In this document: positions 1 through 15,551 of the stretch, in pieces
How positions within the stretch are numbered: the first letter of the stretch is position 1
Layout of the letters: each line of letters starts with the position of its first letter
From: a virus
Lineage: Duplodnaviria; Heunggongvirae; Uroviricota; Caudoviricetes
Virus record (IMG/VR): IMGVR_UViG_2675903575_000009
Location: 1-15,551 of that record
Reading direction: 5' to 3' (one strand)
DNA: 15,551 nucleotides
Made by a program: the position numbers and the translations under genes
Notes under the pieces: model-generated
What the model was told of the DNA's origin: nothing
Databases searched by the model: none
Seen by the model: the letters and a program-made list of their open reading frames with translations, nothing else

Positions 1-723
1 TTACGGGGTAATGCCAACCGCTGCCGCCACTTTGTCGCCACTAGTGCTTTGTTTTTCGAATTCATCTAAGGCTCTTTCAACATCAGAAAGATACTCTTTG
101 AATGAGTTCAAGATCATGCTTAACGAGCCCCCCATAAATAGGACCTGTTTTCCATCTTTTTTAAAAAAATCAGGATATTTTTCTATAAGTTCAATAATGC
201 TTTTAATATTTTGCCCATCGTTTTCTAAGTATTTTGCATCATTATGCGCACAACTGTTTCTTAATTTTGTTATTTTTTTGATATTCGAATAGTGGGATGT
301 TGACTTCATCCCTATCATTTTTTTGATAAATAGATGGCTCCTCTCAAATCCACTTCCTTTGAGATCTGAAACATTTATAGGAGAATGATGTCTATTAGCA
401 AAGTTGTTACAGAATTTTTCTATTTCGTGTTCAAAAATTCCGAATATAGTTAAGAATACTGACCTGCGGATAATACTTGGGTAGTATTCTAAAAACATTT
501 CATCGAGATCTAGCGATGAGCTGGTGAGTCCCATGTAATGATCAATTGACTGATATACACCATCTTCCGGAGATATTTCAATTATATATTCTTCAGGTCC
601 TTTGTCTTTATATTCTGCTATGCCCTTAGCGATTGATGATTCGCTATGAGTGATTAACGTCTCGATAATATCAAATGTTAAGGAGAAGTCGAATATTGGG
701 AATTGAAACAAAAACTTAACCAT
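1..723 (-). CDS. Hypothetical AT-rich cargo protein immediately downstream of int; contains an R-x4-H motif (RNSCAH) reminiscent of HEPN-type RNase/abortive-infection proteins
   Basis: Six-frame ORF 1..756 (251 aa) with stop at 1-3; I prefer the internal Met at 723 (weak AAGG about 9 nt upstream) over 756 (no RBS). Markedly AT-rich compared with the neighbouring int. Motif KLRNSCAHN fits the Rx4-6H HEPN signature, but one short motif is weak evidence. Confidence 0.5.
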   Translation of the reverse strand: MVKFLFQFPIFDFSLTFDIIETLITHSESSIAKGIAEYKDKGPEEYIIEISPEDGVYQSIDHYMGLTSSSLDLDEMFLEYYPSIIRRSVFLTIFGIFEHEIEKFCNNFANRHHSPINVSDLKGSGFERSHLFIKKMIGMKSTSHYSNIKKITKLRNSCAHNDAKYLENDGQNIKSIIELIEKYPDFFKKDGKQVLFMGGSLSMILNSFKEYLSDVERALDEFEKQSTSGDKVAAAVGITP

Positions 724-733
724 GCTTGAACCT

Positions 734-1765
734 TTAAGAATCTGATTTAGTAACATCCAAAGTTGCTAGTGGATTGAAACGAAGAGCTGTCTCTAAGTGA
801 TCAGGTGATAGATGAGCATAACGCATAGTCATTTTTATGTCGTGATGTCCGAGGATTTTTTGCAAAGCAAGGATGTTTCCACCCGACATCATGAAATGCG
901 CCGCAAACGTATGACGCAGAACGTGTGTAAGTTGACCGCGAGGGAGCACGATAGACGTTTTTTCCATCACGGATAAAAATTGAAAATAGCAGTCTGTGAA
1001 GAAATTGAACCCATCAAGCGCCATGATCTCTTCATAAAGCTCTTTACTGATAGGGATGCTTCTGTTTTTCTTCCCCTTCGTTCTTACAAAGGTAATTCGG
1101 TATTTGGTCACCTGTGATCGGGTAAGGTTTATTGCTTCTCGCCAGCGTGCGCCTGTGCTTAAGCATATCTTGACTACCAGTGCCAGAATTGGGTCCTGAC
1201 GTTTGCAATCATCCAGCAGTTCAACAATCTGCTCATGGGTAAGCCATGCCATCTCTTTTTCTGCGATGGTGAATTTTCGCATGTTCTCCAGTGGGTTTGG
1301 ATACGACCATTCGCCCAGGCGGGATAGTTCGCTAAAAACACTACTTAGATAGCTTTGCTCCAGGTTAATGGTGACCGGGCTGGCCCCTTTCTTCCATTTC
1401 TCGCTGAAGTAGATCTCACCTGTCAGTCGTTTATCTCGATAATGGGCAAACATTTTAGATGTGAGATCGGTTGCAAGGGGATTGCCCAGAGCGTCAACCA
1501 TCAGCAGCAATTTGTCATAGACATGCTGCCCAGCAGTCAGAGATTTACCATGTAGTTTGAACCATAGCTCAACCACGTCTTTCAGGGTTCGACGATCTAC
1601 TGATTCGCCCAGCCAGGGCTTTGCTTCGGTTTCTTCCATCGTGTGACGCTCAAAAGCCAGTGCTTCGCCTTTGGTGGCGAATTGTTTACGCACACGACGC
1701 CCACTACGTCCGGCGGGGTAACATTCGCAAAGCCATTTTCCTGTGGTGAGTTTTCGTACTGCCAT
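734..1765 (-). CDS. int: Tyrosine site-specific integrase (P2 Int-like)
   Basis: N-terminus MAVRKLTTGKW...RSGRRVRKQFATKGEALAFE closely parallels the P2 Int N-terminus; C-terminal catalytic region HVLRHTFAAHFMMSGGNILALQKILGHHDIKMTMRYAH carries the R...HxxR...Y tyrosine recombinase signature. The ORF track extends to 1843, but the conserved start is the Met at 1765, preceded by GGAGGG (1774-1779 on the minus strand). Confidence 0.92.
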   Translation of the reverse strand: MAVRKLTTGKWLCECYPAGRSGRRVRKQFATKGEALAFERHTMEETEAKPWLGESVDRRTLKDVVELWFKLHGKSLTAGQHVYDKLLLMVDALGNPLATDLTSKMFAHYRDKRLTGEIYFSEKWKKGASPVTINLEQSYLSSVFSELSRLGEWSYPNPLENMRKFTIAEKEMAWLTHEQIVELLDDCKRQDPILALVVKICLSTGARWREAINLTRSQVTKYRITFVRTKGKKNRSIPISKELYEEIMALDGFNFFTDCYFQFLSVMEKTSIVLPRGQLTHVLRHTFAAHFMMSGGNILALQKILGHHDIKMTMRYAHLSPDHLETALRFNPLATLDVTKSDS

Positions 1766-1794
1766 AAAAAATGCCCTCCAATAGAGAGTATTTT

Positions 1795-1818
1795 TACTGT
1801 ATGTATAACCAGTGTCAA
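1795..1818 (-). promoter_or_regulatory. Candidate LexA (SOS) box overlapping a sigma70-like promoter directly upstream of int
   Basis: TACTGTATGTATAACCAGTG (1795-1814) fits CTGT-N8-(A/C)CAG with an AT-rich spacer; the CCAG right half is the variant I recall from the uvrB box. On the minus strand a perfect TTGACA -35 (1813-1818) lies 17 nt from AAAAAT (1790-1795), so the box covers the spacer. 17 of 20 positions match the box at 8016-8035. Confidence 0.4.
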
Positions 1819-1951
1819 TGTATGAAATCTTGCGACCATACATCTCACTGAAGCCATAATGAAGTTGGCTATTTTTTGCTATGTGAGTATGTGACTTTTG
1901 CGGTTAGCCTGCGGCTCATTGTTATATTAGGCGCAGATATAAAAGCAAAAA

Positions 1952-2143
1952 TTATCGCGAGTTTTTAGTACAGATTTTTTTTGATTTACTAATAGTTCCA
2001 TCATTGCAAACGAACTTTCCATCGGAGGTACAGTGAGAGACACCTCCCTTTTTCCCAGAACAAGGATAATTTTTAGCATAGGTAGTTAGTGGGTTTAATA
2101 ACAAAGAGCATGATAAAACCACAAAAAATACCTTACCAAGCAT
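1952..2143 (-). CDS. Small (63 aa) AT-rich secreted or lipoprotein-like Cys-containing protein between cI and int
   Basis: Strong RBS GGAGG about 7 nt upstream of ATG (minus strand, around 2150-2155); N-terminus [23 protein letters not shown] looks like a signal peptide (possible lipobox VLSC); the mature part has 4 Cys. AT-rich relative to the flanking cI and int. Confidence 0.5.
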
Positions 2144-2158
2144 AGTTTCCTCCCGGTA

Positions 2159-2728
2159 TTACCTAACGTACTTAATTGTTAAACTTATAATTTTTCCAAT
2201 TATTTCAACATCTTCTATCTTGCACTCGAAGGCTCTGTTTCCACCTTCAACGAAGATTCTTCCACCGGGTAAACGAGTAATGTCGCGGATTGTTATTTCG
2301 CCATCAATACTTATTACCCATTTACCATCACGTATATCATCAAATTCTTTATCACAAATAAATTCAGAATTGTTATCTGTGATGACAAAAGGTTTTTTAA
2401 ACGTAGAGGGTAGAAATCCCTTATCAAAAATATAAAAACCGTCTTCACGCAAGGCACCATCAGATAATACATATTTAGCAACTTCCATCGTATTTGTATT
2501 ACCTGAAGTTTGCTTTGAACCATGTCCAGTTGTGAGCCAATTAAGCGAGGTGCCCGTTTCAAGGGCGCACTGGATTACCCATTCTGCTGGGAATGAGTCA
2601 CGCATGTAGCGTGTAGCGAGTGTACTTTTAGAGATTCCTAAATGATCGCACAACGCCTGTCGAGTTTTGAATCCATAAGCTTCTACCATGCGCTCTATAG
2701 CGCCTCGTCCGCCTTTCTCCAAATTCAT
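2159..2728 (-). CDS. cI: Phage CI-type immunity repressor (186 CI-like, HTH N-terminal domain)
   Basis: About 190 aa, the size I recall for 186 CI rather than the roughly 99-aa P2 C; N-terminal HTH-like segment KTRQALCDHLGISKSTLATRYMR; divergent from the cox/apl-like early operon. Start taken as ATG 2726-2728 (GGAG 5 nt upstream); the ORF track begins two codons earlier at a GTG. Confidence 0.8.
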   Translation of the reverse strand: MNLEKGGRGAIERMVEAYGFKTRQALCDHLGISKSTLATRYMRDSFPAEWVIQCALETGTSLNWLTTGHGSKQTSGNTNTMEVAKYVLSDGALREDGFYIFDKGFLPSTFKKPFVITDNNSEFICDKEFDDIRDGKWVISIDGEITIRDITRLPGGRIFVEGGNRAFECKIEDVEIIGKIISLTIKYVR

Positions 2729-2752
2729 GGTCACTCCAAGTGAACTTTTATC

Positions 2753-2781
2753 TTGACGATTTCATCGTGCGATCGTATGTT
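2753..2781 (+). promoter_or_regulatory. Candidate early lytic promoter (pR/Pe-like) with overlapping operator-like palindromes
   Basis: TTGACG (2753-2758), 17-nt spacer, TATGTT (2776-2781), about 70 nt upstream of the cox/apl-like start. The spacer holds the palindrome ACGAT-TTC-ATCGT (2756-2768) and CGATCG (2771-2776); a related ACGAtccgtatTCGT lies at 2803-2817. Confidence 0.4.
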
Positions 2782-2853
2782 TATGGTGTTCACAAAATAC
2801 AAACGATCCGTATTCGTCCTGATTAATCATCATTAAACGAGGAATGTTGCATC

Positions 2854-3075
2854 ATGAGACCTAACATTTCAATCACTCTTACCACGCCTCATGTGACTAT
2901 TGAACGCTATAGCGAGCTGACAGGACTGTCCATCGATACCATCAATGACATGTTGGCTGATGGACGCCTTATCCGTCACCGTTTGCGCAAAGATAAAAAA
3001 CGCGAAAAAGTGATGATCAACATAGCAGCCATGACCGTTGATGCGCTTTCAGAATGCAATCTAAACCTTAATTAG
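2854..3075 (+). CDS. Cox/Apl-like excisionase and transcriptional regulator (small HTH protein, first gene of early operon)
   Basis: 73 aa, divergent from cI, GAGGA RBS 10 nt upstream; sequence [28 protein letters not shown] resembles the P2 Cox / 186 Apl HTH region; position is diagnostic in P2/186 phages. Confidence 0.65.
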
Positions 3076-3101
3076 TTCGATTCTGAAATACATCAGAGGC
3101 A

Positions 3102-3617
3102 TTGACCATGTTTGATTACCAAGTTTCCAAACATCCACATTTTGATGAAGCCTGTCGTGCATTTGCACTGCGCCACAATCTGGTGCAACTGGCAGAACGT
3201 GCAGGCATGAATGTGCAGATTCTGCGGAACAAGCTGAACCCAGCTCAGCCTCATTTATTAACCGCACCAGAAATCTGGCTGCTTACCGATCTGACTGAAG
3301 ATTCAACGCTGGTAGATGGTTTTCTGGCACAGATTCATTGTCTGCCATGTGTACCGATTAATGAGGTGGCAAAAGAGAAACTGCCACATTACGTCATGAG
3401 TGCAACCGCAGAGATCGGGCGTGTTGCTGCAGGTGCGGTATCTGGCGATGTAAAAACCTGTGCCGGTCGTCGTGATGCCATCAGCAGCATTAACTCTGTA
3501 ACACGACTGATGGCGCTGGCGGCTGTTTCATTGCAGGCCCGTTTACAGGCTAATCCTGCGATGGCAAGTGCAGTTGATACTGTAACTGGCCTCGGTGCGT
3601 CATTCGGTTTGCTGTGA
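3102..3617 (+). CDS. cII: 186 CII-like lysogeny-establishment regulator
   Basis: 171 aa (186 CII is about 169 aa as I recall) immediately after apl/cox; HTH-like segment [19 protein letters not shown] near the N-terminus. Confidence 0.7.
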
Positions 3618-3624
3618 GGTGCTT

Positions 3625-3825
3625 ATGCTGACGAAAGAACCATCATTTGCATCGCTGCTGGTAAAACAAAGCCCGGCAATGCACTACGGTCACGGCTGGA
3701 TCATGGGGGAGGATGGTAAACGCTGGCATCCGTGCCGTTCACAAGATGAATTGCTGGCAGAACTATCTACGAAAAAACGGGGGAACAAATGGCTATTGAA
3801 GGCGCTGCGGCGACTGTTCCATTAA
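3625..3825 (+). CDS. Hypothetical early-region small protein (position of the 186 fil/dhr-type genes)
   Basis: ORF 3595..3825; preferred start ATG 3625 with GAGGTG RBS 4 nt upstream, just after the cII stop (3615-3617). Confidence 0.45.
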   Translation: MLTKEPSFASLLVKQSPAMHYGHGWIMGEDGKRWHPCRSQDELLAELSTKKRGNKWLLKALRRLFH

Positions 3826-4130
3826 GCCCCGGTGAACGCCTGAATGGACTTAACCATATTGCGGAGTTAAGGGCGAAAGTATTTGGCCTGAATATTGAGT
3901 CAGAGCTTGAGCGGTTTATTAAAGATATGCGTGAACCACGGGATATCAATAACGAACAAAATAAACGGGCACTGGCTGCTATATTCTTTATGGCAAAAAT
4001 TCCAGCTGAACGTCATAGCATCAGCATTAATGAGCTGACCACTGACGAAAAGCGGGAGTTGATTAAAGCAATGAATCATTTTCGTGCAGTGGTGAGCTTA
4101 TTTCCAAGACGGCTAACCATGCCGAATTAA
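3789..4130 (+). CDS. Hypothetical early-region protein (113 aa)
   Basis: ORF with GGGGGA-like RBS upstream; overlaps the 3' end of the preceding ORF in another frame; phage-like GC content. Confidence 0.5.
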   Translation: MAIEGAAATVPLSPGERLNGLNHIAELRAKVFGLNIESELERFIKDMREPRDINNEQNKRALAAIFFMAKIPAERHSISINELTTDEKRELIKAMNHFRAVVSLFPRRLTMPN

Positions 4131-4197
4131 CCAACTAATGAAATTAATGGCGTAAACCCGCCGGGTATCCCTTTATCTAAATTCAGGAGAATTGATT

Positions 4198-4431
4198 ATG
4201 CGTAATATTGAAACCCTCACGACTAAAACCGGACCGGATGATGCAGGGCTTAATATTTTACTGACAGAGGCTCGTCTGGAAGAACGCCGGGCAAGGGCTG
4301 AAGCAATGGCAGCTCGCCTTGATAGCCTGGCGTGTCATATCACATCCCGCCAGCTAAACCACGTCGAAGCAGCAGAACTACTGCGTGTAACTGCTGAAGC
4401 AATCCAGAACGAAGCGCAGGAGATCCACTAA
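4198..4431 (+). CDS. Hypothetical early-region protein (77 aa)
   Basis: AGGAG (4185-4189) 8 nt upstream of ATG 4198; stop overlaps the start of the next gene (TAATG at 4429-4433). Confidence 0.5.
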   Translation: MRNIETLTTKTGPDDAGLNILLTEARLEERRARAEAMAARLDSLACHITSRQLNHVEAAELLRVTAEAIQNEAQEIH

Positions 4432-4658
4432 TGGCTGATGCAATGGATCTTGTACAGCAGCGCGTTGAAGAAGAACGCCAGCGCCATATCCGTGCTGCCC
4501 GTGCCAAAACGCCGGGCGTGTCCCGCGTGCTTTGCATTGAGTGTGAAGCGCCAATTCCGCCAGCACGCCGCCGCGCCATTCCAGGTGTGCAGCTTTGCAT
4601 TACCTGTCAGGAAATCGCAGAGCTGAAAGGCAAACATTACAACGGAGGTGCTGTATGA
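4431..4658 (+). CDS. TraR/DksA-family C4 zinc-finger protein
   Basis: Cys pattern CIEC-x17-CITC (CxxC-x17-CxxC) is the TraR/DksA C4 spacing, not the Ogr/Delta CX2CX22CX4C spacing; 75 aa; start overlaps the previous stop and its own stop overlaps the dam start. Confidence 0.7.
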   Translation: MADAMDLVQQRVEEERQRHIRAARAKTPGVSRVLCIECEAPIPPARRRAIPGVQLCITCQEIAELKGKHYNGGAV

Positions 4659-5512
4659 GCACCATCCTGAAATGGGCGGGAAATAAAACCGCCATTATGT
4701 CCGAACTGAAAAAACACCTTCCTGCTGGCCCGCGACTGGTTGAACCTTTCGCGGGTTCCTGTGCTGTGATGATGGAGACGGATTACCCCAGCTATCTGGT
4801 TGCGGATATTAATCCTGATTTAATCAACCTCTATAAAAAGGTTGCCGCTGATTGTGAATCGTTTATATCTCGCGCCAGAGTTTTATTTGAGATCGCAAAC
4901 AGGGAGGTGGCTTATTACAACATAAGGCAGGAGTTTAATTACTCCACTGAAATTACTGATTTCATGAAAGCGGTATATTTCCTGTATCTCAATCGTCACG
5001 GTTACCGTGGTTTATGTCGCTATAACAAGAGCGGGCATTTCAACATTCCCTACGGTAATTATAAAAATCCGTATTTCCCTGAAAAAGAAATTCGCGCATT
5101 TGCAGAAAAAGCCCAGCGGGCAACGTTTATCTGCGCCAGCTTTGATGAAACGCTGGCGATGTTGAAGGCGGGGGATGTGGTGTATTGCGATCCGCCGTAT
5201 GACGGCACGTTTTCCGGTTATCACACTGACGGCTTCACTGAAGATGACCAGTATCACCTGGCATCCGTTCTTGAACATCGGTCATCAGAAGGACATCCGG
5301 TCATTGTTTCTAACAGTGACACATCCCTGATCCGTTCGCTGTATCGCAATTTTACTCACCACTACATCAAGGCAAAACGCAACATCGGTGTGGCAGCTGG
5401 CGAGGGTAAATCAGCAACAGAAATCATTGCTGTTTCCGGGCCGCGCTGCTGGGTGGGATTTGATTATTCGCGTGGCGTGGACAGTTCTGCCGTGTACGGA
5501 GTACGTGCATGA
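4655..5512 (+). CDS. dam: DNA N6-adenine methyltransferase (Dam family), phage-encoded orphan MTase
   Basis: N-terminus [11 protein letters not shown] and FAGSCAV (AdoMet-binding motif I region) plus catalytic DPPY ([10 protein letters not shown]) are Dam-family hallmarks; GGAGG RBS at 4644-4648; ATGA overlap with upstream and downstream genes. The ORF track start at 4595 is an unlikely 5' extension. Confidence 0.9.
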
Positions 5513-7923
5513 GTCATGCCGATATGAACAACTGCTGCGGCTTTAACGAGGCTGCCGCAGCATTCTCATGGAACAGCCCGAAAAAGGCCATTAACCCTTA
5601 TCTGGACCCGGCGGAAGTTGCGCCGGTTTCTGCGCTTTCAAACCTGATCACTCTGTACGCTGCCGATAACGAGCAGGAACAACTGCGCCGCGAGGCACTG
5701 AGTGATCAGGTCTGGGAGCGTTATTTCTTTAATGAATCCCGTGATCCTGTCCAGCGCGAAATGGAGCAGGATAAGCTAATTAGCCGGGCAAAGCTGGCGC
5801 ATGAGCAGCAGCGTTTTAATCCAGACATGGTCATTCTGGCGGATGTCAACGCCCAGCCTTCCCATATCAGCAAGCCGCTGATGCAACGTATTAAATACTT
5901 CAGCAACCTGGGCAGGCCAAAGGCTTATTCCCGCTATTTGCGTGAGACGATTAAGCCATGCCTGGAACGACTGGAGCATGTACGCGACAGCCAGCTATCT
6001 GCATCTTTTCGTTTTATGGCAAGCCATGAAGGGCTGGACGGTCTGCTGATCCTGCCTGAAATGAGTCAGGATCAGGTGAAACGCCTGTCCACCCTTGTCG
6101 CTGCGCATATGAGCATGTGTCTTGATGCCGCTTGTGGTGATTTGTACGCCTCCGATGATGTTAAGCCGGAAGAAATCCGCAAGACATGGGAAAAGGTGGC
6201 AGCAGAAACCCTGCGACTGGATGTCATACCGCCTGCGTTTGAGCAACTCCGCCGGAAAAGAAACCGCCGCAAACCTGTGCCCTATGAACTCATTCCGGGT
6301 TCGCTGGCGCGTATGCTGTGCGCCGACTGGTGGTATCGGAAATTATGGAAGATGCGTTGCGAATGGCGGGAAGAGCAGTTGCGTGCTGTCTGTCTGGTCA
6401 GCAAAAAAGCATCTCCCTATGTCAGCTATGAAGCCGTGATGCATAAACGTGAGCAGCGCCGTAAGTCGCTGGAGTTTTTCCGTTCTCATGAACTGGTGAA
6501 CGAAGACGGCGACACGCTGGACATGGAGGATGTGGTAAACGCCAGCAGCAGCAACCCTGCGCATCGCCGCAATGAGATGATGGCCTGTGTTAAAGGCCTG
6601 GAGCTTATCGCGGAAATGCGCGGTGACTGCGCCGTTTTCTACACCATCACCTGTCCGTCACGTTTCCATTCCACGCTAAATAACGGCAGGCCCAACCCGA
6701 CCTGGACAAATGCGACGGTAAGACAAAGCAGTGATTATCTGGTTGGCATGTTTGCTGCATTTCGTAAGGCGATGCACAAAGCCGGATTGCGCTGGTATGG
6801 CGTGCGGGTGGCTGAGCCGCATCATGACGGTACAGTTCACTGGCACCTGTTGTGTTTTATGCGCAAAAAAGATCGCCGCGCCATTACTGCTTTGTTGCGT
6901 AAGTTTGCCATTCGTGAAGACCGCGAGGAGCTGGGGAATAACACGGGACCACGCTTTAAGTCTGAGTTGATTAACCCGCGCAAAGGAACGCCGACAAGCT
7001 ACATCGCGAAATATATCAGTAAGAACATTGACGGGCGTGGTCTGGCTGGCGAGATCAGCAAGGAAACGGGTAAATCCCTGCGTGATAACGCTGAATACGT
7101 GAATGCCTGGGCGTCTCTGCATCGTGTTCAGCAATTTCGCTTCTTTGGCATTCCGGGGCGTCAGGCTTACCGTGAACTGCGATTGCTGGCTGGTCAGGCG
7201 GCAAGGCAACAGGGTGACAAAAAAGCAGGTGCGCCGGTACTGGATAACCCGCGGCTTGATGCAATCCTGGCTGCTGCTGATGCTGGTTGTTTTGCCACCT
7301 ACATCATGAAGCAGGGCGGCGTACTGGTTCCCCGTAAATATCACCTCATCAGAACTGCTTATGAAATCAACGAAGAGCCGACCGCCTATGGCGATCACGG
7401 CATTCGTATTTATGGCATCTGGTCACCTATTGCAGAGGGCAAGATCTGCACTCATGCCGTGAAGTGGAAAATGGTTCGTAAGGCCGTTGACGTTCAGGAG
7501 GCGGCAGCCGACCAGGGCGCTTGCGCCCCTTGGACTCGTGGCAATAACTGTCCCCTTGCTGAAAATTTGTACCAACAAGGGAAAGACAAATCAGCTGATG
7601 GAGATACCAGAACGGATATCACCCGCATGGATGACAAGGAGTTGCACGATTACCTGCACAGTATGAGCAAAAAAGAGCGCCGGGAACTGGCAGTAAGGTT
7701 ACGCCTGGTGAAACCGAAACGGCGTAAAGACTACAAACAGCGAATTACAGACCATCAGCGACTGCAGCTCGTGTATGAACTGAAGTCCAGGGGATTTGAT
7801 GGCAGCGAGAAAGAGGTCGATTTACTCCTTCGCGGCGGCAGTATTCCGTCAGGAGCAGGCCTGCGTATCTTCTATCGGAACCAGCGTTTGCAGGAAGATG
7901 ATAAGTGGCGAAACCTGTATTAA
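5509..7923 (+). CDS. A: Replication initiation endonuclease (P2 gpA / 186 A-type rolling-circle initiator)
   Basis: 804 aa; [11 protein letters not shown] metal-binding motif and paired-tyrosine active site YIAKYISK (YxxKY) typical of P2 A-family nickases; canonical position after the early genes. Confidence 0.9.
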
Positions 7924-8015
7924 TTACGCGGGTTAACAATTCGTGCTCTTAATAATACCAGGCATATCAGGCTGATGAGCGTAAAAAAACGTTTTACATC
8001 AGTAAGATTATTATA

Positions 8016-8035
8016 TACTGTAAATATAAACAGTG
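8016..8035. promoter_or_regulatory. LexA (SOS) box upstream of the tum/dinI-like module
   Basis: TACTGTAAATATAAACAGTG is a perfect CTGT-N8-ACAG with AT-rich spacer, about 40 nt upstream of ATG 8076, overlapping promoter-like hexamers (TTTACA 7993-7998, TATACT 8014-8019). Confidence 0.6.
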
Positions 8036-8075
8036 GTTATGTATACAGTATTGCTTTGGTGTCATAGGAGGAAAG

Positions 8076-8264
8076 ATGCAGGACTATTTTTTGGAGTCTT
8101 TGAAGCTCCAGCGCATTGATTTTTTTCTTAAGCTTGTAGCGGCTAGTGAGTGTAGTGATGAAGAGAAGGGGCTGGCTCTGCAGTGGGTTTCTGAACTGAC
8201 AGATGAACTCATGGCAAAAATCAGAACCCACGAATACAACCGCTCAATGGATGTCATCAGCTGA
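8076..8264 (+). CDS. Hypothetical 62-aa protein, first gene of the LexA-controlled module (possible Tum N-terminal-equivalent)
   Basis: Perfect AGGAGG RBS 6-7 nt upstream of the ATG; directly downstream of the LexA box; stop 10 nt before the DinI-like start. Confidence 0.55.
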   Translation: MQDYFLESLKLQRIDFFLKLVAASECSDEEKGLALQWVSELTDELMAKIRTHEYNRSMDVIS

Positions 8265-8274
8265 GGTGACTTTT

Positions 8275-8508
8275 ATGCGCATTGAAATAATGATCGATAA
8301 AGAGCAGAAGATTAGCCAGTCTACACTGGACGCCCTTGAATCCGAGCTTTACCGCAATCTGCGCCCCCTGTATCCCAAAACGGTAATTCGTATCCGCAAA
8401 GGTAGCTCTAACGGTGTGGAACTTATCGGATTGCAACTGGACGAAGAAAGAAAACAAGTGATGAAAATTATGCAGAAGGTGTGGGAAGACGACAGCTGGC
8501 TGCATTAA
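8275..8508 (+). CDS. DinI-family protein (186 Tum C-terminal-like / DinI-like)
   Basis: 77 aa; MRIEIMIDKEQKISQSTLDALESEL...IMQKVWEDDSWL parallels E. coli DinI (MRIEVTIAK...ETWESADDWF) in length and conserved ends; GAGGTGA RBS 5 nt upstream. The ORF track start at 8203 is a 5' extension in the same frame. Confidence 0.8.
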   Translation: MRIEIMIDKEQKISQSTLDALESELYRNLRPLYPKTVIRIRKGSSNGVELIGLQLDEERKQVMKIMQKVWEDDSWLH

Positions 8509-8719
8509 GAAACGTTGCTGGCGTCTGAACCTGCTTCTGGCGTCAGCAAGGTTGAACCGCGAGCCTTGAGAGGCGTTAACCATAAGTAAAAAGACAGTAA
8601 TCACTTGATTATCTATCAGGGCGAGACCTATGCTGCACTTTTAGTTATAACTCATAATGTATTGAAATTATTATAATATATGTCATTCTTAAAATGTGTA
8701 TGCTTATCAAGGAGCAAGA

Positions 8720-9592
8720 ATGAAACGTGGCATTGTAGCTAATCCTAATGAAATGAGTTTTCATAGAAATAATAGTACGGTCTATCTTGGGGCAGGTTTA
8801 ACTGAGCAGGATATTAATTATTTCTGCTTTTACTGGGATGATGTGGTTATTCTAGATAGTGAAAATATTCACTCGATTGTGCCTAAAGAAAAAGAATTAT
8901 TAGATAATGGGGTATTACGTAGACCTATTATGAAACATGATGGGATGCTGAATATCCAAGACTTTCCATTTTTATATACGGAATTTCAGTTGCAGACATT
9001 GGATGAATTCAGGAAGAACGAGCCTGCTACTTATTGGCACTTTCATCAAACAGGGGAAAATTTAATATATGATAAAGAACAGAAAACGGCCCTTCAGTTG
9101 AGATTGGAGTTGTTTAATGTTCTGAGAATTCCTGATAAAGATGCTCATATAGAAGATATATTACGTTTTAAAGATGATTGTCAGGATGATCTTAATGCGT
9201 TACATGAGTACTTAGAAAAACTGTATACTGAAGTCCTTTATTCTAGAGACCCTAATCTAACGAGGGCTAAAAATTTTTCTTTATTACAAGAGGCTGTAGT
9301 TAATCTTGATAAAGCTATCGAAGGGAAATGGAGAAATCCTATCAGAATGGGAGTCAAAGCCAATCCAGAAGTAGATGGTGGGCAGGTTCTGGAATTTTTA
9401 AAACCGTTGTACCATGCTGCTATTGCTGGTTATTCAGGCGGTATTATTCCCGGTATGGTTACAGCCTTGGCAACCGCAATTCCAAGTTTTATAAAATTCC
9501 AACCAGAATGGGTGGGCTTTAGAGATAAGGGGCCTAAAGAATTAGCTTATCTTACCAAAGCAACGCATAAGGGGTTGATTAAGAGAGCTTAA
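8720..9592 (+). CDS. Hypothetical AT-rich accessory protein (290 aa) with a C-terminal hydrophobic segment; candidate anti-phage or abortive-infection gene
   Basis: ORF 8696..9592; preferred start ATG 8720 with GGAG about 6 nt upstream. Strongly AT-rich against the GC-richer phage backbone; no family recognised by eye; C-terminal AAIAGYSGGIIPGMVTALATAIPSFI looks like a membrane helix. Location between A/tum and cos corresponds to the P2 tin/old accessory locus. Confidence 0.6.
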   Translation: MKRGIVANPNEMSFHRNNSTVYLGAGLTEQDINYFCFYWDDVVILDSENIHSIVPKEKELLDNGVLRRPIMKHDGMLNIQDFPFLYTEFQLQTLDEFRKNEPATYWHFHQTGENLIYDKEQKTALQLRLELFNVLRIPDKDAHIEDILRFKDDCQDDLNALHEYLEKLYTEVLYSRDPNLTRAKNFSLLQEAVVNLDKAIEGKWRNPIRMGVKANPEVDGGQVLEFLKPLYHAAIAGYSGGIIPGMVTALATAIPSFIKFQPEWVGFRDKGPKELAYLTKATHKGLIKRA

Positions 9593-9693
9593 GACATTTT
9601 AATCGATTTTCGCAACTATATTCCTTCGTAACCACACAAGTGCATGACTATGCCGCATGAATCCGCATGATCGTTTGAGGATCGTTTTAGCTG

Positions 9694-9723
9694 AGGCCCG
9701 CTAGGAATGGCGGGCCTTTGCTT
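9694..9723 (+). terminator. Rho-independent terminator-like hairpin downstream of the 290-aa gene
   Basis: Perfect 8-bp inverted repeat AGGCCCGC / GCGGGCCT (9694-9701 and 9710-9717) with an 8-nt loop, followed by TTGCTT. Confidence 0.5.
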
Positions 9724-9764
9724 ATGTCATGCAGGCGCATGAAAACCACTACATAAAGCGGGCA

Positions 9765-9783
9765 GGCGTGGCGGGGATACGAG
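9765..9783. other. Candidate cos (cohesive-end) site of the phage
   Basis: GGCGTGGCGGGGATACGAG: the first 13 nt match the G-rich start of the 19-nt P2/186 cohesive end as I remember it (GGCG[A/T]GGCGGGGA...); it lies where cos is expected, between the A-side accessory genes and the portal gene Q. Match is from memory and the 3' part diverges. Confidence 0.4.
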
Positions 9784-9807
9784 CGCGCGCTTAAGGATAA
9801 ATTGAAG

Positions 9808-9836
9808 TTGATTTAATTTTTCGACATGGATAATCT
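9808..9836 (+). promoter_or_regulatory. Candidate sigma70 promoter for the 353-aa cargo gene
   Basis: TTGATT (9808-9813), 17-nt spacer, TAATCT (9831-9836), about 70 nt upstream of ATG 9910. Confidence 0.3.
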
Positions 9837-9909
9837 TAACTACGTATGATTATTGATAAAAAATAAACATAAACAATTGTAGCGGATCTTAAAACTTATT
9901 AGGATTAGT

Positions 9910-10971
9910 ATGCTTAAAACAAATAAGGTATTTATTGACACACAAACGTACGTAAAGGCTGGTCTTCATTTTGAGGGGGTAGCATTTAAAGCTTTCCATG
10001 AATTATGTGCGAAAGGTGATTTAGTCTTAATTACAACTACAGTTGTAGAGAGAGAAGTAAAAGGTAAAATAGAGGAATCAATAAAGGATGCTCTGCAGGC
10101 TATAAACACAGTACAAAGAAAAGCTAGGCTTTTGAATAGTATTGATAATGGACCGCTCCATGGTTTTTTTCAGCAATTTAACGAACATGAAATTCACGAA
10201 GCAGCACAAAAAGTTTTTGATGATTTTTTGAAAGGATGTCACGCCAAATTAGCTACAATAGAAGTGATAGATCTTAATGAGGTTTTAGATAAATACTTTG
10301 GCAAAGAACCACCATTTGGGCAAAATAAGAAAAAAAGTGAGTTTCCTGATGCAATCAATTTAGCTGCGGTAGAGCGATTTGTTAATGATGAAGATGTGTA
10401 TATCATTTCTGAGGATAGTGACTTAAAAAATTATTGTGATGGTAAAAACAATCTTCATCAAATTGATTCACTTGATAAGTTTCTAGGTGAATACAATACG
10501 CATACAAACGAATTAAGTAATAAATTGATGCAGTTTATCGAAAGCAAACGTGAAGACATAAGAGCGGACGTAATTGCCCAACTCAATGATGCCGATGGAT
10601 ATAACGTTTCAACTTGGGAAGACGCTGAATTGGATTCATTTGAAGTCGTCAATATTGATGACTTTGAACCATCAATAATTAAGATTGACAATAATTATTG
10701 TCTAGCGACCTTCTCTGTTTCTGTAGATTTTGAAGTTACTGTTTCTGGTCCAGACTTTAATAATGGGTATTGGGATAGCGAAGATAAAGTAATGATTCCA
10801 ATGGAGACAACCACACGAACTGAAGTTCAAGAGATTAGTTTCGATATTGAAATTGAAGTTATGTATGAAATCGAGGATGGTGAATTAACAGATATCGCAT
10901 TTGATGTGAATATTGATAAGTTATCCCGAGGGATTGAGTTCTCTATTGAAGAAAATAATTTTGAATATTAA
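9910..10971 (+). CDS. Hypothetical AT-rich accessory protein (353 aa): possible PIN-like nuclease N-terminal domain plus highly acidic C-terminal domain; candidate anti-phage defence gene
   Basis: AGGA RBS 5 nt upstream of the ATG. The N-terminal ~175 aa have acidic residues spaced like PIN-domain metal ligands (VFIDTQ with D10; TTTVVEREV; FPDAINLAAVE; YIISEDSDL). The C-terminal ~150 aa are very D/E-rich with beta-like stretches. Strongly AT-rich; lies between cos and Q, where P2 has no gene. Confidence 0.6.
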   Translation: MLKTNKVFIDTQTYVKAGLHFEGVAFKAFHELCAKGDLVLITTTVVEREVKGKIEESIKDALQAINTVQRKARLLNSIDNGPLHGFFQQFNEHEIHEAAQKVFDDFLKGCHAKLATIEVIDLNEVLDKYFGKEPPFGQNKKKSEFPDAINLAAVERFVNDEDVYIISEDSDLKNYCDGKNNLHQIDSLDKFLGEYNTHTNELSNKLMQFIESKREDIRADVIAQLNDADGYNVSTWEDAELDSFEVVNIDDFEPSIIKIDNNYCLATFSVSVDFEVTVSGPDFNNGYWDSEDKVMIPMETTTRTEVQEISFDIEIEVMYEIEDGELTDIAFDVNIDKLSRGIEFSIEENNFEY

Positions 10972-10980
10972 TTCGTTCAT

Positions 10981-11010
10981 AACGGCATCATTGTGATGCC
11001 GTTGGGTTTT
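10981..11010 (+). terminator. Rho-independent terminator hairpin shared by the convergent cargo gene and Q
   Basis: Perfect 10-bp inverted repeat AACGGCATCA-ttg-TGATGCCGTT (10981-11003) followed by GGGTTTT; abuts the Q stop codon (11009-11011). Confidence 0.6.
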
Positions 11011-12037
11011 ATAATGTATATATTTCAAAATTTATAATTTCATGACCAAGCCATCTGTTTATTTCCATGAATCTTTTTTGAAGTGGTAATAGTTCATTTC
11101 TTACGAAGACGCAGCTCGCCTTCTCCACATCACCAAAACCCCCAACATTATTCGGCAAAATTCCCATCATCTGAGGCGGTACGCGGTGTGCCGCCATCAT
11201 GTCATCACGGCTGACGTTCTTGATGTTCAGAAATTCATCCTTCGCCGCGACTTCTGACAACGGGATGATCTGAAGCCCGTCCTTTTTGCCGTTAGGCGAG
11301 TACATAAACAGGTTGCGGAAGTTGCCAGGGCCTTTGGCGCTTTTCATCGCATTGCGGAGGTTGTTCACATCCTCCTGGTTCTGCGCGGCATCGGTCATGT
11401 ACATGATGAAGCCTGCATGGCTGCCGTTAATGTAATACTTCCGGCGGAACAGCGTGGCGGACTCGTTGAGCAGGGCTGACGGAATGGCAGAAAGATAACC
11501 TGGTAGGCCGTAGATCTCCTGGTTGATGTCAGGTTCCATCAGATGAAAAATGCTGCCTTTCGTGAACTGATACGGCTGGGTTGTCATACCGTATTGCACA
11601 AACCAGTAGGTATCCAGGTCTAACCCGCGTCGGGTGTATTTTGCCAGCGCAGGCTCAAGGGCGATAACTTCACCGAAGCGGTTCGTGCGTTTCTCCAGGT
11701 AGGCGTTACCAAATACCAGGTAGTCCTGCACAAAACGTGAAAAAGCCTGCTGGCTGAGCAGCGGGTGAGGGATATAGGTACTGGTCAGAATGTTGCACTT
11801 TACTGCAATCGGGGAACTGTGATGCACGGCAGCGCGGAAGGTGCGCGCCAGTCCGTCAAAGCTGACGGGCGGCTCATACCAACGGTCCATCTGTACGCAT
11901 TCCACATAGTCCAGTAATTCTCGGCGGTCCAGAACAGGAACGGGATCGCCGAAGCTGAATGCTTCGGCTGTAGTTTGACTTTTAAGCTGGATCTGATTCG
12001 TCGCCGCAGCGCGGTTCTTCTTACTCTTTCCCATCAA
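11009..12037 (-). CDS. Q: Portal (capsid vertex) protein, P2 gpQ-like
   Basis: 342 aa (P2 Q is about 344 aa as I recall); leftward next to leftward P with a 4-bp overlap and divergent from O-N, the diagnostic P2 head-gene arrangement. Confidence 0.88.
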   Translation of the reverse strand: MMGKSKKNRAAATNQIQLKSQTTAEAFSFGDPVPVLDRRELLDYVECVQMDRWYEPPVSFDGLARTFRAAVHHSSPIAVKCNILTSTYIPHPLLSQQAFSRFVQDYLVFGNAYLEKRTNRFGEVIALEPALAKYTRRGLDLDTYWFVQYGMTTQPYQFTKGSIFHLMEPDINQEIYGLPGYLSAIPSALLNESATLFRRKYYINGSHAGFIMYMTDAAQNQEDVNNLRNAMKSAKGPGNFRNLFMYSPNGKKDGLQIIPLSEVAAKDEFLNIKNVSRDDMMAAHRVPPQMMGILPNNVGGFGDVEKASCVFVRNELLPLQKRFMEINRWLGHEIINFEIYTL

Positions 12038-13800
12038 AAAATCTCCACAATATTGCTGGCATTGGCGGATTCGCCCTGCAGCGGTTCGTTAAACAGTGCG
12101 TGCATCGTTGCCCAGGCCAGATCGGCGTGGCTGGCTTCTTCGCTGCGGCTGGCTTCATAGGTCGGGCGGTTGCCGCTGGCGGTGGTAGCGCGACGGATTG
12201 CCATAAATGATTGCGCAATGTCGGTGTGCCCGGCGTCAAACTCCAGACGGCGGTGGCTGATAATGTCGTAGGCCTTGAGCACCAGGGCGTTTTTAACGTT
12301 GGGGTTGTAGACAAACTCCCGGACGGCAGGAAAGAATGCTTTCACGTTCTCGTAAACCCCGTGACCAACGCCGGTTGAGTCGATACCGATATAAGTCACG
12401 TTGTACTGTTCGGTCAGTTTTTTGATGGCGTCAGCCTGAGCGCGGAAGTCCATCCCGCGCCACTGGTGACGCTCAAGAATGCGGAATTTACCGCCCGGTA
12501 CGGCTGGCGGTGCCACCACCACGCATCCGGCACTGTCGCCGTTCTGAGTACCTTTTGCGGGGTCATAACCGATCCATACTTCGCGCCAGCCAAACGGGCG
12601 CAGGGCCAGTGCATGAAAGTCGGTCCAGACTTCCCAACTGTCCACCATGCACGCCTGCAGTTCGCTGAGCGGGAACACGGACGCGAGATCGTCCACGAAC
12701 TCACACATCAGCAGGTTCTGGTATTCGTCCGGGCTGTATTCCATGCGCAACTGGTCAAGGTCGAACAGGTTACAGCCGCCGCGCACCGCATCTTCCACGG
12801 TGACTATCTGGCGGTATTGTCCGTCTGCGCACAGCAGGCCGGGGGCCAGATTGCTGTGGGACAGGTCGATGTCCACCTTATCGGCTTTGTTGCGCCCACG
12901 GTTGAACAGCGCACCGGACCAGAACGGATAAGCACTGTGTGTCAGGCTGGATGGCGTGGAAAAATAGGTCTGTCGCCATTTTTTGTGAATAGCCATACCG
13001 GAAGCCACTTTGCGCAGCTCCTGGAATTTCGGTATCCAGAAATATTCATCCAGATACAGGTTGCCGTGATAACTCTGGGCCGTGCGGGCATTGGTGCCGA
13101 GGAAGTAAAGCGTGGCCCCGTTAGGAAGCACCATCGGATCGCCTTTCAGCTCCACCTCCACTTCTTTAGCGAAGTCGATGATGTACTGCTTAAAGACGTG
13201 GGCCTGTGCCTTACTGGCGGAAAGGAAAATCTGGTTACGTCCGGTAAGCAGAGCGTCAATCAGGGCTTCACGGGCAAAGTAAAAGGTCGCGCCGATCTGG
13301 CGTGACTTCAGCAGGTTGCGGATGCGGTTGGTTTTTCCGGCTTCCCACCAGTGGCGCTGATAGTTGAACATGGAGGAATGGAAGATTTCTTCCAGTTTCT
13401 CAATCTGCTCATCGGTGAAAACATTCTTTTCCGGCTGACGGCGCGGGCCTTTGTTGCGGTTGGCGACGTTAGGGTTTAAGTCGGCTTCGTTGCCGCCATT
13501 GTTAAACTTGCCGATCCGCGCATGGCGCTCCGACTGGCGCGCCAGCAGGTCAATCTCTTTGAAATCTTTCCCTTCTTTGTGCTCCTTCATAATGAGCTGG
13601 CAGTAGCGTGCGGCGGTGGTGAGCTGCATCTGATCCAGCGGCCCATAGTCACCCCACTTGTCGCGTTTTTTCCAGCTGTGAACGGTTGCAACTTTCTCGC
13701 CCAGCATTTCAGCAATGCGGGCTACGCGGTATCCCTGAAAGTACAGCAGCATGGCCTGCCGACGGGGATCGAGATCTGCGGGTGTCAGTGTGGTGTTCAT
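12034..13800 (-). CDS. P: Terminase large (ATPase) subunit, P2 gpP-like
   Basis: 588 aa (P2 P is about 590 aa as I recall); N-terminus MNTTLTPADLDPRRQAMLLYFQGYRVARIAEMLG typical of P2-family terminase ATPase; synteny with Q, O, N. Confidence 0.9.
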   Translation of the reverse strand: MNTTLTPADLDPRRQAMLLYFQGYRVARIAEMLGEKVATVHSWKKRDKWGDYGPLDQMQLTTAARYCQLIMKEHKEGKDFKEIDLLARQSERHARIGKFNNGGNEADLNPNVANRNKGPRRQPEKNVFTDEQIEKLEEIFHSSMFNYQRHWWEAGKTNRIRNLLKSRQIGATFYFAREALIDALLTGRNQIFLSASKAQAHVFKQYIIDFAKEVEVELKGDPMVLPNGATLYFLGTNARTAQSYHGNLYLDEYFWIPKFQELRKVASGMAIHKKWRQTYFSTPSSLTHSAYPFWSGALFNRGRNKADKVDIDLSHSNLAPGLLCADGQYRQIVTVEDAVRGGCNLFDLDQLRMEYSPDEYQNLLMCEFVDDLASVFPLSELQACMVDSWEVWTDFHALALRPFGWREVWIGYDPAKGTQNGDSAGCVVVAPPAVPGGKFRILERHQWRGMDFRAQADAIKKLTEQYNVTYIGIDSTGVGHGVYENVKAFFPAVREFVYNPNVKNALVLKAYDIISHRRLEFDAGHTDIAQSFMAIRRATTASGNRPTYEASRSEEASHADLAWATMHALFNEPLQGESANASNIVEIF

Positions 13801-13846
13801 GGCACAAACCTACAGCCTTGAATGAAGGCTTTCCCCGCCTGCGGTT

Positions 13847-13864
13847 TGTGTGGTTGTCGGTACA
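13847..13864. promoter_or_regulatory. Late-promoter activator site (TGT-N12-ACA dyad) in the P/O divergent region
   Basis: TGTgtggttgtcggtACA matches the TGT-N12-ACA element bound by Ogr/B/Delta activators at P2-family late promoters; centred about 55 nt upstream of a plausible O transcript start and about 88 nt upstream of ATG 13943. Confidence 0.45.
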
Positions 13865-13942
13865 AATACCGCGCATTGTTTCACTGCCCCCATCACCGCA
13901 ACCATAAGGCTCCAGTAAGTTTTTTCTAACGGAGCACGGCTC

Positions 13943-14776
13943 ATGACAGTGAAAGCAAAGCGTTTTCGCATCGGGGTGGAAGGTGCCACCACCGACGGAC
14001 GCGAAATCCAGCGTGAATGGCTGGAACAGATGGCAGCCAGCTACAACCCGGCGGTGTATACCGCGCTGATTAACCTTGAGCACATCAAGTCTTATCTGCC
14101 GGACAGCACCTTTAACCGCTACGGCAAGGTGACGGCGCTGTTTGCTGAAGAAATCACGGAAGGTCCGCTGGCAGGCAAGATGGCGCTGTATGCCGACGTT
14201 GAGCCAACGGAGTCCCTGGTGGAATTGGTGAAAAAAGGCCAGAAATTATTCACCTCTATGGAAGTCAGCCCGAAGTTTGCTGATACGGGCAAAGCCTACC
14301 TGGTCGGCCTGGCTGCCACTGATGACCCTGCCAGTCTGGGCACTGAAATGCTGACATTCAGCGCCAGTGCAGCCCATAACCCGCTGGCAAACCGCAAGCA
14401 GAATCCCGCCAATCTTTTTACCGCTGCAGAGGAAACGGTGATCGAACTGGAAGAAATCCAGGATGACAAACCGTCCCTGTTTGCCCGTGTCACGGCGCTG
14501 TTCACCAAAAAAGAGCAGTCCGATGACGCCCGGTTCTCTGATGTGCATAAGGCCGTGGAACTGGTCGCCACTGAGCAGCAGAACCTGAGTGCGCACACCG
14601 AAAAATCCCTGTCTGAGCAGGAAGAACGCCTGTCTGAGCTGGAGACTGCCCTGCAGGCACAGCAGACCGCCTTTAACGAACTGGTGGACAAGCTGAGCCA
14701 TGAAGACAGCCGCCAGGACTACCGCCAGCGTGCAACAGGCGGTAACGCCCCCGCTGACACTCTGACCAATTGCTGA
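13943..14776 (+). CDS. O: Capsid scaffolding protein, P2 gpO-like
   Basis: 277 aa; N-terminus MTVKAKRFRIGVEGATTDGREI typical of P2 O; GGAG RBS 8 nt upstream; followed directly by the N-like capsid gene. Confidence 0.85.
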   Translation: MTVKAKRFRIGVEGATTDGREIQREWLEQMAASYNPAVYTALINLEHIKSYLPDSTFNRYGKVTALFAEEITEGPLAGKMALYADVEPTESLVELVKKGQKLFTSMEVSPKFADTGKAYLVGLAATDDPASLGTEMLTFSASAAHNPLANRKQNPANLFTAAEETVIELEEIQDDKPSLFARVTALFTKKEQSDDARFSDVHKAVELVATEQQNLSAHTEKSLSEQEERLSELETALQAQQTAFNELVDKLSHEDSRQDYRQRATGGNAPADTLTNC

Positions 14777-14792
14777 TGGAGCACAAAACCTG

Positions 14793-15551
14793 ATGAAGAA
14801 GAATACCCGCTTTGCTTTTAACGCTTACCTGCAGCAACTGGCGCGTCTGAACGGTGTGGCAGTTGAAGAACTGTCCAGCAAGTTCACCGTAGAGCCGTCC
14901 GTGCAGCAGACATTGGAAGACCAGATCCAGCAGTCCACCGCTTTCCTGACGCTGATTAACGTCACGCCAGTGACTGAGCAGTCCGGTCAGCTGCTGGGGT
15001 TGGGAGTTGGCAGCACCATTGCCGGAACCACTGATACCACCGCGAAAGAGCGTGAACCTGTCGATCCGACGCTGATGGTCGATGTGGAATATAAATGCGA
15101 GCAGACCAACTTTGACACGGTACTGACCTACGCGAAGCTGGACCTGTGGGCGAAGTTTCAGGATTTTCAGGTGCGTATCCGTGACGCCATCGTGAAACGT
15201 CAGGCACTGGACCGCATCATGATCGGCTTTAACGGCGTGAAGCGTGCGAAAACCTCCAACCGTAGCGAAAACCCGCTACTGCAGGATGTGAATAAAGGCT
15301 GGCTGCAGAAAATCCGTGAGGATGCACCGGATCACGTCATGGGCAGCACCACCACGGGCGGTGAAACCACACCGGGTGCGGTGAAAGTCGGGAAAGGTGG
15401 CGAATATGCCAACCTGGACGCCGTGGTGATGGATGCCGTCAATGAGCTTATCGACGTGGTCTACCAGGACGATGACGATCTGGTGGTGATTTGCGGGCGT
15501 GAACTGCTGTCTGACAAGTATTTCCCGCTGGTTAACAAAGAGCAGGAAAAC
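14793..15551 (+). CDS. N: Major capsid protein, P2 gpN-like (5' partial; runs off the window end)
   Basis: Open frame from ATG 14793 to the window end (253 codons, no stop); N-terminus MKKNTRFAFNAYLQQLARLNGV; downstream of O as in P2. Not listed in the supplied ORF track because it is truncated. Confidence 0.85.
   Translation, partial: MKKNTRFAFNAYLQQLARLNGVAVEELSSKFTVEPSVQQTLEDQIQQSTAFLTLINVTPVTEQSGQLLGLGVGSTIAGTTDTTAKEREPVDPTLMVDVEYKCEQTNFDTVLTYAKLDLWAKFQDFQVRIRDAIVKRQALDRIMIGFNGVKRAKTSNRSENPLLQDVNKGWLQKIREDAPDHVMGSTTTGGETTPGAVKVGKGGEYANLDAVVMDAVNELIDVVYQDDDDLVVICGRELLSDKYFPLVNKEQEN

Follow-up and report, generated by a model that had tools for sequence, protein, structure and literature searches.

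Two cargo genes on either side of cos in the gpA-gpQ hotspot of a P2-family Escherichia coli prophage: a DUF6236 protein and a candidate single-protein PIN nuclease

The DNA studied here, referred to as the window, is the whole stretch of 15,551 nt represented by IMG/VR virus record IMGVR_UViG_2675903575_000009 (Caudoviricetes, positions 1 to 15,551), and our subject is a pair of AT-rich open reading frames (ORFs) located between its replication gene A and its portal gene Q. The element is an Escherichia coli P2-family prophage of the 186 type. This assignment is based on the 2.4 kb around both ORFs, which matched the chromosomal prophages of E. coli strains SHP24 and N18-04097 with 100% DNA identity, and these prophages are annotated with P2-type genes. 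According to the RefSeq annotation of SHP24, the left part of the prophage encodes, in this order, an integrase, a CI repressor, CII, Fil, a DUF2732 protein, a TraR/DksA protein, a Dam methylase and the replication endonuclease (gpA). A small ORF, a DinI-like gene and the genes for a DUF6236 protein and a PIN domain protein are annotated after gpA, and beyond the PIN gene the portal and large terminase genes, followed by capsid genes, lie on the opposite strand.

The first of the two genes, ORF1 (8720-9592, plus strand), encodes a DUF6236 family protein of 290 residues and is preceded by AGGAG at 8710-8714. A mechanical call of this ORF starts at GTG 8696; all homologs start with MKRG and RefSeq places the start at 8720, the position used here. 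The second, ORF2 (9910-10971, plus strand), encodes a PIN_12 protein of 353 residues and is preceded by AGGA at 9901-9904. Both ORFs are intact, and each has its Shine-Dalgarno sequence 5 nt upstream. Their GC content is 0.36 (ORF1) and 0.34 (ORF2), and their GC content at third codon positions is 0.30 and 0.25, respectively, compared with 0.57 in A, 0.61 in Q and 0.69 in P. An earlier note on this DNA, made from the sequence alone, had described two long AT-rich ORFs with plausible ribosome-binding sites between the tum region and the portal gene, and this description is accurate against a backbone range of 0.57-0.69. The promoter-like hexamers that it reported for ORF2 also exist (TCGACA-18-TATGAT, 9821-9850, plus strand, 60 nt upstream of the gene), as a consensus match only (10 of 12 positions). 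However, nine promoter-like sites were found in the region, whereas 11.6 were expected from shuffled sequences. Because such sites are no commoner than in shuffles, this one is compatible with ORF2 having its own promoter, yet is not evidence for one. Downstream of ORF2, a terminator-like hairpin faces the 3' end of Q (10980-11014, plus strand; an 11-bp stem followed by GGTTTTAT).

The two genes are separated by the packaging site of the phage. A 19-nt cohesive-end site, GGCGTGGCGGGGATACGAG, was found at 9765-9783 (plus strand), without any difference from the cos annotated in Salmonella phage SEN8. It matches P2 cosL at 15 of 19 bases, and the cos of 186 (position 1 of that record) aligns at the same place. 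The last base of the SEN8 record aligns with position 9764, and its first bases are the annotated 19-nt cos. Immediately upstream, positions 9640-9764 (plus strand) align with the last 125 bases of SEN8 and represent a conserved cos-flanking segment, which forms the right end of the packaged DNA and contains a GC-rich hairpin. The cos motif lies between the two cargo positions in all 10 E. coli loci compared. When positions 8600-11000 were used as a query, matches were obtained in 1251 of 5426 complete E. coli genomes, nearly all of them through bases 9640-9800, a stretch whose conservation extends to P2-like phages of Klebsiella, Salmonella and Yersinia. The spacer of approximately 300 bp between the ORFs is thus not cargo but a widely conserved cos-flanking stretch. 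The hairpin inside it (9694-9717; AGGCCCGC...GCGGGCCT, then TTTGCTT) is present with substitutions in SEN8, and could be either a terminator of transcripts coming from the ORF1 side or part of the terminase recognition site.

The region therefore consists of two slots. Slot A extends from A/tum to cos, with the replication gene A (5509-7923 in RefSeq) further to the left and the DinI-like (186 tum-like) gene as its conserved left flank (8275-8508, plus strand; Pfam DinI, E=9e-23; also annotated in RefSeq), a gene that was kept in all prophages compared. Slot B extends from cos to Q, which forms the conserved right flank (11009-12037, minus strand; 'phage portal protein' in RefSeq). ORF1 lies rightmost on the packaged chromosome, in the position where P2 carries tin and old. 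The earlier note had placed the whole pair at that position, which is correct for ORF1 only: with cos between the two genes, ORF2 is located at the opposite, left end of the packaged chromosome. In P2 and 186 the cos-Q interval is only about 160-190 bp and contains a terminator.

Comparison with related prophages delimited both cassettes. In slot A, homology to prophages with other cargo is lost at about 8578-8596 and regained at about 9639-9641; the cassette (8579-9639, plus strand) comprises ORF1 preceded by 141 bp of AT-rich DNA of its own. Strain 09-02E (locus L008; compared loci are cited by our L numbers) has approximately 8 bp in place of this entire stretch and documents an empty site. 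In slot B, homology to prophages with different content is lost at 9789-9790 and regained at 11036-11058. The corresponding cassette (9791-11035, plus strand; right boundary approximate, within the last codons of Q) comprises ORF2, its own upstream region and the terminator. Insertion sequences were also observed near the slots: an IS1 immediately 5' of the DUF6236 gene in strain ZH177 (L005, 2730-3427) and an ISVsa5 between the portal and terminase genes in strain LR-25 (L010, 6685-7893). The ZH177 prophage is defective, since its portal is truncated and fused to tail genes.

The contents of the two slots vary separately. Among the 5426 complete E. coli genomes, 22 carry the DUF6236 gene, 36 carry the PIN gene and 12 carry both; in other words, 10 of the 22 DUF6236 carriers have no PIN gene, and 24 of the 36 PIN carriers have no DUF6236 gene. 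In four sampled loci with DUF6236 in slot A, slot B was empty or contained an AIPR protein, an ABC-three-component system or a 427-residue hypothetical protein. Conversely, in five sampled loci with the PIN gene in slot B, slot A contained an LA2681-type HEPN protein, two hypothetical proteins, nothing, a DUF2971 protein or a small reverse-strand ORF. Viral contigs in IMG/VR gave a similar picture. All 16 ORF2 homologs with at least 52% identity sit in slot B, directly 5' of a P2-type portal gene, and the slot A beside them ranges from about 0.2 to 3.4 kb. Portals 66-100% identical to Q were found 44-60 bp 3' of 17 ORF2 homologs. On the other hand, a more distant homolog (42% identity; L059, 2227-3279) occupies slot A, upstream of cos, which means that the same cargo family can fill either slot. 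With slot content differing among 10 E. coli loci and 16 viral contigs, empty slots included, the A-to-Q interval is indeed the variable cargo region that had been predicted. The prediction of one two-gene locus did not survive: backbone DNA with cos lies between the genes, and each cassette assorts without the other. We therefore rejected a single two-gene system, or operon. ORF1 and ORF2 represent two independent single-gene accessory cassettes flanking cos, inside the known gpA-gpQ hotspot of anti-phage gene swapping. Because this hotspot consists of two separately exchangeable slots, neighbouring genes in it should not be assumed to form one system.

The hotspot itself has been described before. 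Rousset et al. (2022; PMC9122126) defined a hotspot in P2-like phages, the cos-proximal region between gpA and gpQ, in which anti-phage systems are concentrated, and the same hotspot was described by Vassallo et al. (2022; PMC9519451) and in a 2026 NAR paper. A supplementary row of PMC9122126, 'hypothetical + DinI + hypothetical + PIN_12', lists WP_053901735 and WP_000920989 in exactly the gene order found here. In the same tables, cluster 97 (PIN_12, 33 occurrences) is identical in sequence to ORF2, and cluster 125 (DUF6236, 23 occurrences) differs from ORF1 by one residue. The suggestion of an undescribed locus is thus contradicted by published tables. Neither protein is among the three P2-hotspot systems (plus old-tin) with reported defence in that study, and we found no sign of them among the eight that were cloned. 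The window resembles the published hotspot in its position between the replication gene A and the portal gene Q, in its proximity to cos and in its variable, compositionally foreign cargo. It differs in that ORF1 and ORF2 are dissimilar to Old, Tin and any PADLOC v2 model, and in that the literature treats as one hotspot what appears here as two separately exchangeable slots around cos. Taken together, both genes are ordinary cargo of a known hotspot, and the existing picture of P2 hotspots is unchanged by our findings. Cargo of the cos-to-Q slot has probably been demonstrated as defensive elsewhere, judging from the cloning primers of two validated systems in Table S11 of the DefensePredictor study (Science 2026; PMC13092281): the DS-16 (PLIK) forward primer matches the conserved cos-flanking sequence of 09-02E and the DS-39 (AAA5) forward primer carries a P2-type cos end, so that both inserts appear to start at or just before cos.

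Both proteins belong to families with curated profiles. ORF2 matched Pfam PIN_12/DUF4935 (PF16289) with 91.4 bits (cut-off 32), the match covering the whole profile, and ORF1 matched Pfam DUF6236 (PF19749) with 75.3 bits (cut-off 26.2). They are therefore recognizable proteins, contrary to the first impression from the sequence; that neither is a conserved phage core protein was confirmed. NCBIfam provided nothing useful for either protein, and PHROGs gave only matches of unknown function (PHROG 23128 for ORF1).

ORF2 has a VapC-like PIN fold with conserved acidic residues. Its N-terminal PIN_12 nuclease domain (residues 7-171, nt 9928-10422, plus strand) is followed by a helical linker and then by a conserved beta-rich C-terminal domain (residues ~228-345, nt 10591-10944, plus strand). 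In an alignment of 38 homologs, D10, E49, D147, D169 and D171 are invariant, as are residues of the C-terminal domain in the motifs YNxSTWED and GPDF. Sequence-profile searches of the PDB returned nothing for the PIN_12 family of ORF2. The PIN superfamily classification paper places DUF4935 in the VapC-like group as proteins of about 350 residues with function unknown, mostly monocistronic, and describes their C-terminal alpha/beta region as having no known homolog. No ORF of at least 40 residues was listed within 9593-9909, and no small ORF adjoins ORF2 on either side; ORF2 thus has no antitoxin partner. Membership in a VapBC module was rejected, as there is no adjacent VapB-like gene and the homologs are lone genes. 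In addition, the VapC proteins of these type II modules have only about 130-150 residues, whereas ORF2 has 353, with long helical inserts and the extra C-terminal domain.

The homologs of ORF2 (n=158) have a constant length and are distributed across Gammaproteobacteria. The gene is 99-100% conserved across many E. coli lineages and also across Klebsiella and E. albertii. More distant homologs are single genes on mobile elements, including P2-like prophages of Pantoea and other genera, integrative and conjugative elements (ICEs) and genomic islands. In ICEs of Salmonella and E. coli they occupy a fixed position between topoisomerase III and the ICE replication gene, and in Pseudomonas they are found in islands that also encode a relaxase and a serine recombinase. 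An island splitting thyA in Vibrio coralliirubri (L016, 1130-12922) also carries a PIN_12 homolog; a Gabija-like pair (OLD-TOPRIM ATPase and UvrD helicase) adjoins it, and an ABC-three-component system (CTD6, MC2 and AAA_23) and several unannotated genes lie beside it. As a separate observation, a Pantoea locus (L017, 6236-9065) and two viral contigs (L049 and L050) have an ORF2 homolog with 54-56% identity together with about 1.9 kb of extra DNA in the cos-to-portal slot, which in Pantoea encodes a 197-residue protein and a 367-residue protein with HTH_3 and Peptidase_M78 domains.

The experimentally validated systems closest to ORF2 were reported in the DefensePredictor study (PMC13092281). 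The DS-5 system consists of the PIN_12 protein WP_021513009 and a DUF5830/AcrIF4-like partner, WP_021513008; either D7A or E44A abolishes defence, and the partner gene is required. ORF2 shares with DS-5 the N-terminal PIN_12 nuclease domain, in which D7 and E44 align with the invariant D10 and E49 of ORF2, and DS-5 is also carried in the P2 hotspot. In DS-3, a single PIN protein defends without an antitoxin, and the authors propose that it is autoinhibited until infection. By description, ORF2 is similar to DS-3 in being one polypeptide with a PIN ribonuclease domain and no cognate antitoxin.

ORF1 is a member of a family with 395 cluster representatives (E<=1e-3) of about 285 residues. Conserved motifs of the family (MxRG, YWD, RP, LPxP, FK, ALH and a C-terminal YLxxA) include no recognizable catalytic signature. 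No known fold was matched, and sequence-profile searches of the PDB with the DUF6236 family were empty. A hydrophobic Gly/Ala-rich segment on the Kyte-Doolittle scale (residues ~240-258, nt 9437-9493, plus strand) overlaps a low-confidence stretch of the structure model (240-255), and similar hydrophobic stretches occur in homologs. However, its 19-residue maximum of 1.55 at residue 249 is below the threshold of 1.6, and we did not adopt a transmembrane reading for this reason.

In P2-like prophages of Cronobacter and other members of the Enterobacterales, slot A holds ORF1 homologs with 60-71% identity, and the ORF1 gene itself, like that of ORF2, is 99-100% conserved across many E. coli lineages. 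A distant clade with about 30% identity is found in lambdoid-type prophages, with the lysis genes on one side and the small terminase subunit on the other; DUF6236 thus recurs beside the packaging region in two phage types. A genome scan with a narrow DUF6236 alignment yielded just two loci. E. coli has such a second clade, a 289-residue protein with 32% identity to ORF1 in lambdoid prophages. Cargo of this kind outlives its phage. The SHP24 prophage is probably defective, because it appears to jump from lysB to a partial tail-fibre gene (L001, 19121-19993), and a degraded remnant in Hafnia alvei (L018-L020) retains only the DUF6236 gene, an AAA_15/21 ATPase, a portal fragment and ogr. We also observed a DUF6236 gene with 32% identity in Winogradskyella (Bacteroidota; L035, 2414-3280), between two paralogous thioredoxin-family (AhpC/TSA) genes and with no phage genes within the contig, so that the family extends beyond Proteobacteria and prophages.

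On the basis of these data, ORF2 is a reasonable single-protein PIN candidate for defence, and we lean towards viewing it as a self-contained defence nuclease. Its VapC-like PIN domain would act as a metal-dependent endoribonuclease through the acidic residues D10, E49, D147 and D169. The beta-rich C-terminal domain would probably hold the nuclease inactive until an infection cue is sensed, and the unlocked enzyme would then cleave host or phage RNA, leading to abortive infection and protecting the lysogen together with its prophage. For ORF1, a defensive role is more tentative and has the balance somewhat against it. It would be an accessory (moron) protein of the phage, whose alpha/beta-plus-helical fold is unmatched and which has no catalytic motif; if defensive, it would most likely exclude, or defend against, phages absent from the tested panels by non-enzymatic means. 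The proposal of anti-phage cargo in the earlier note can thus be upheld in part. In its favour, both genes are variable cargo of a hotspot, the PIN_12 family has a validated defence member, and DefensePredictor assigns a log-odds of 8.32 to WP_053901735.1, a protein identical to ORF1 apart from one residue at most. Against it stands a DUF6236 homolog that was scored as non-defensive.

That homolog is the first of several results weighing against a defensive function. The candidate '6236' (WP_097421955.1) belongs to the same Pfam family as ORF1, has 289 residues (290 in ORF1), is also from E. coli and has a similar score (log-odds 8.56 versus 8.32), yet once cloned it was listed as 'defensive = FALSE' in Table S6 of the DefensePredictor study, that is, on the phage panel of that study. 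Its cloning primers had no match in the window, in the fetched loci or in the complete E. coli genomes, and it is thus a different allele or locus from ORF1. Neither ORF1 nor ORF2 matched any PADLOC v2 model. Among 45 DUF6236 homologs, PADLOC gave one weak match, to LmuA (E=0.0011); among 38 PIN homologs, it gave four weak matches to PD-Lambda-5_A (E about 6e-4 to 8e-4), with ORF2 itself not among them. Four matches to one family name are beyond chance; a remote relationship of the PIN domain to that system may lie behind them. The similarity of ORF2 to DS-5B is low and limited to the PIN domain (23% identity, E=5e-7, residues 7-191); hhalign gave a probability of 94.7% over columns 9-215, the C-terminal domains being left unaligned. 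A tblastn search of the window with DS-5A gave nothing better than E=2, so the required partner is absent. The unrelated C-terminus and the missing partner gene rule out ORF2 as a DS-5 member. Literature searches on DUF6236, DUF4935, PF16289 and the WP accessions returned no functional paper and no published test of either protein. Finally, the PIN proteins on ICEs and islands could serve element maintenance instead of defence.

A bolder version of the proposal, which we consider unlikely, is that both genes represent new defence types. The C-terminal domain of ORF2 would be a novel phage sensor unlocking the fused PIN RNase, and ORF2 could then be a one-protein system of abortive infection that differs from both DS-3 and DS-5. 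DUF6236 would mediate, through a novel fold, exclusion of temperate or other phages missing from standard panels, which would explain its recurrence by the packaging site in two unrelated prophage architectures. If ORF2 is active, a compact single-protein PIN nuclease and a new candidate sensor domain would be added to the defence repertoire, and the phage trigger of this domain would become open to study. If DUF6236 is active, a widespread prophage family of unmatched fold would gain a function.

One alternative concerns ORF1, which might serve the phage itself, as a counter-defence protein or as an accessory factor of late functions such as lysis or packaging. The location of the family is consistent with this idea: in at least 31 of 51 viral contigs, as judged with limited probes, the distant clade lies on the late-gene strand where lysis genes meet the small terminase subunit, and in P2-like phages DUF6236 is directly beside cos. 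The failure of one cloned homolog to give defence and the lack of any enzymatic or effector-like domain found in ORF1 point in the same direction. However, the lysis-terminase junction is also a classic moron slot. The ORF1 gene is variably present among otherwise near-identical prophages and must therefore be dispensable for the phage cycle, its retention in the Hafnia remnant suggests a benefit to the host, and DefensePredictor scores its near-identical variant as defensive. We therefore regard a phage-serving role as rather unlikely.

For ORF2, the corresponding alternative is a toxin-like or maintenance nuclease of the mobile element, acting in addiction, in competition between elements or in the processing of the element's own RNA. 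The VapC-like fold would fit such a role, as would the fixed position of homologs in ICEs and their presence in islands alongside relaxase and serine recombinase genes. On the other hand, no antitoxin-sized ORF adjoins ORF2, and its 353 residues with a conserved fused domain are unlike a VapC of 130-150 residues. Moreover, defence genes abound both in the P2 slot and in the Vibrio island, and two other E. coli PIN proteins have been validated as defence without toxin-antitoxin behaviour. Compared with the defence nuclease that we prefer for ORF2, this alternative appears improbable.

It is very improbable that the two genes form one two-component defence system, for example with DUF6236 as sensor or regulator and PIN as effector. 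They are neighbours on the same strand of the prophage, and the 12 genomes carrying both exceed the approximately 0.6 expected if the 22 and 36 carriers were independent over the 1251 genomes with a query match. However, all 12 are 99.8-100% identical over 2.4 kb and eight are from one series of chicken isolates, so that they represent one phage lineage sampled repeatedly. Furthermore, cos and 150 bp of conserved backbone lie between the genes, sampled carriers show at least four (DUF6236) and at least five (PIN) alternative neighbour states, empty slots included, and each family occurs as lone genes across genera, in line with the mostly monocistronic DUF4935 genes of the PIN classification paper. 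That the ORFs are decaying or silenced foreign DNA without current function, as their foreign base composition and the apparent truncation of the SHP24 prophage (a 100% match to the 2.4-kb query) after lysB might suggest, is hardly credible: in both families the ORFs keep their full length and their invariant motif residues down to 25-40% identity, and both genes are 99-100% conserved across many E. coli lineages.

Apart from the two slots, some other features of the window should be mentioned. An Rfam scan of the window detected no RNA family. A third AT-rich accessory gene (4-723, minus strand, 240 residues, GC 0.34) is located between the prophage end and the integrase; it had only sub-threshold matches, to Pfam HEPN_RiboL-PSP (E=0.004) and PADLOC HEC-01A (E=0.005). 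The 2026 NAR paper mentions a minor att-int slot, and this gene may belong to its cargo. In the early operon, a Dam-type DNA adenine methylase (4595-5512, plus strand) matched the PADLOC 'orphan methyltransferase' model with E=5e-111, and some related prophages (L004 and L025) either have no Dam methylase or carry a different gene at this position.

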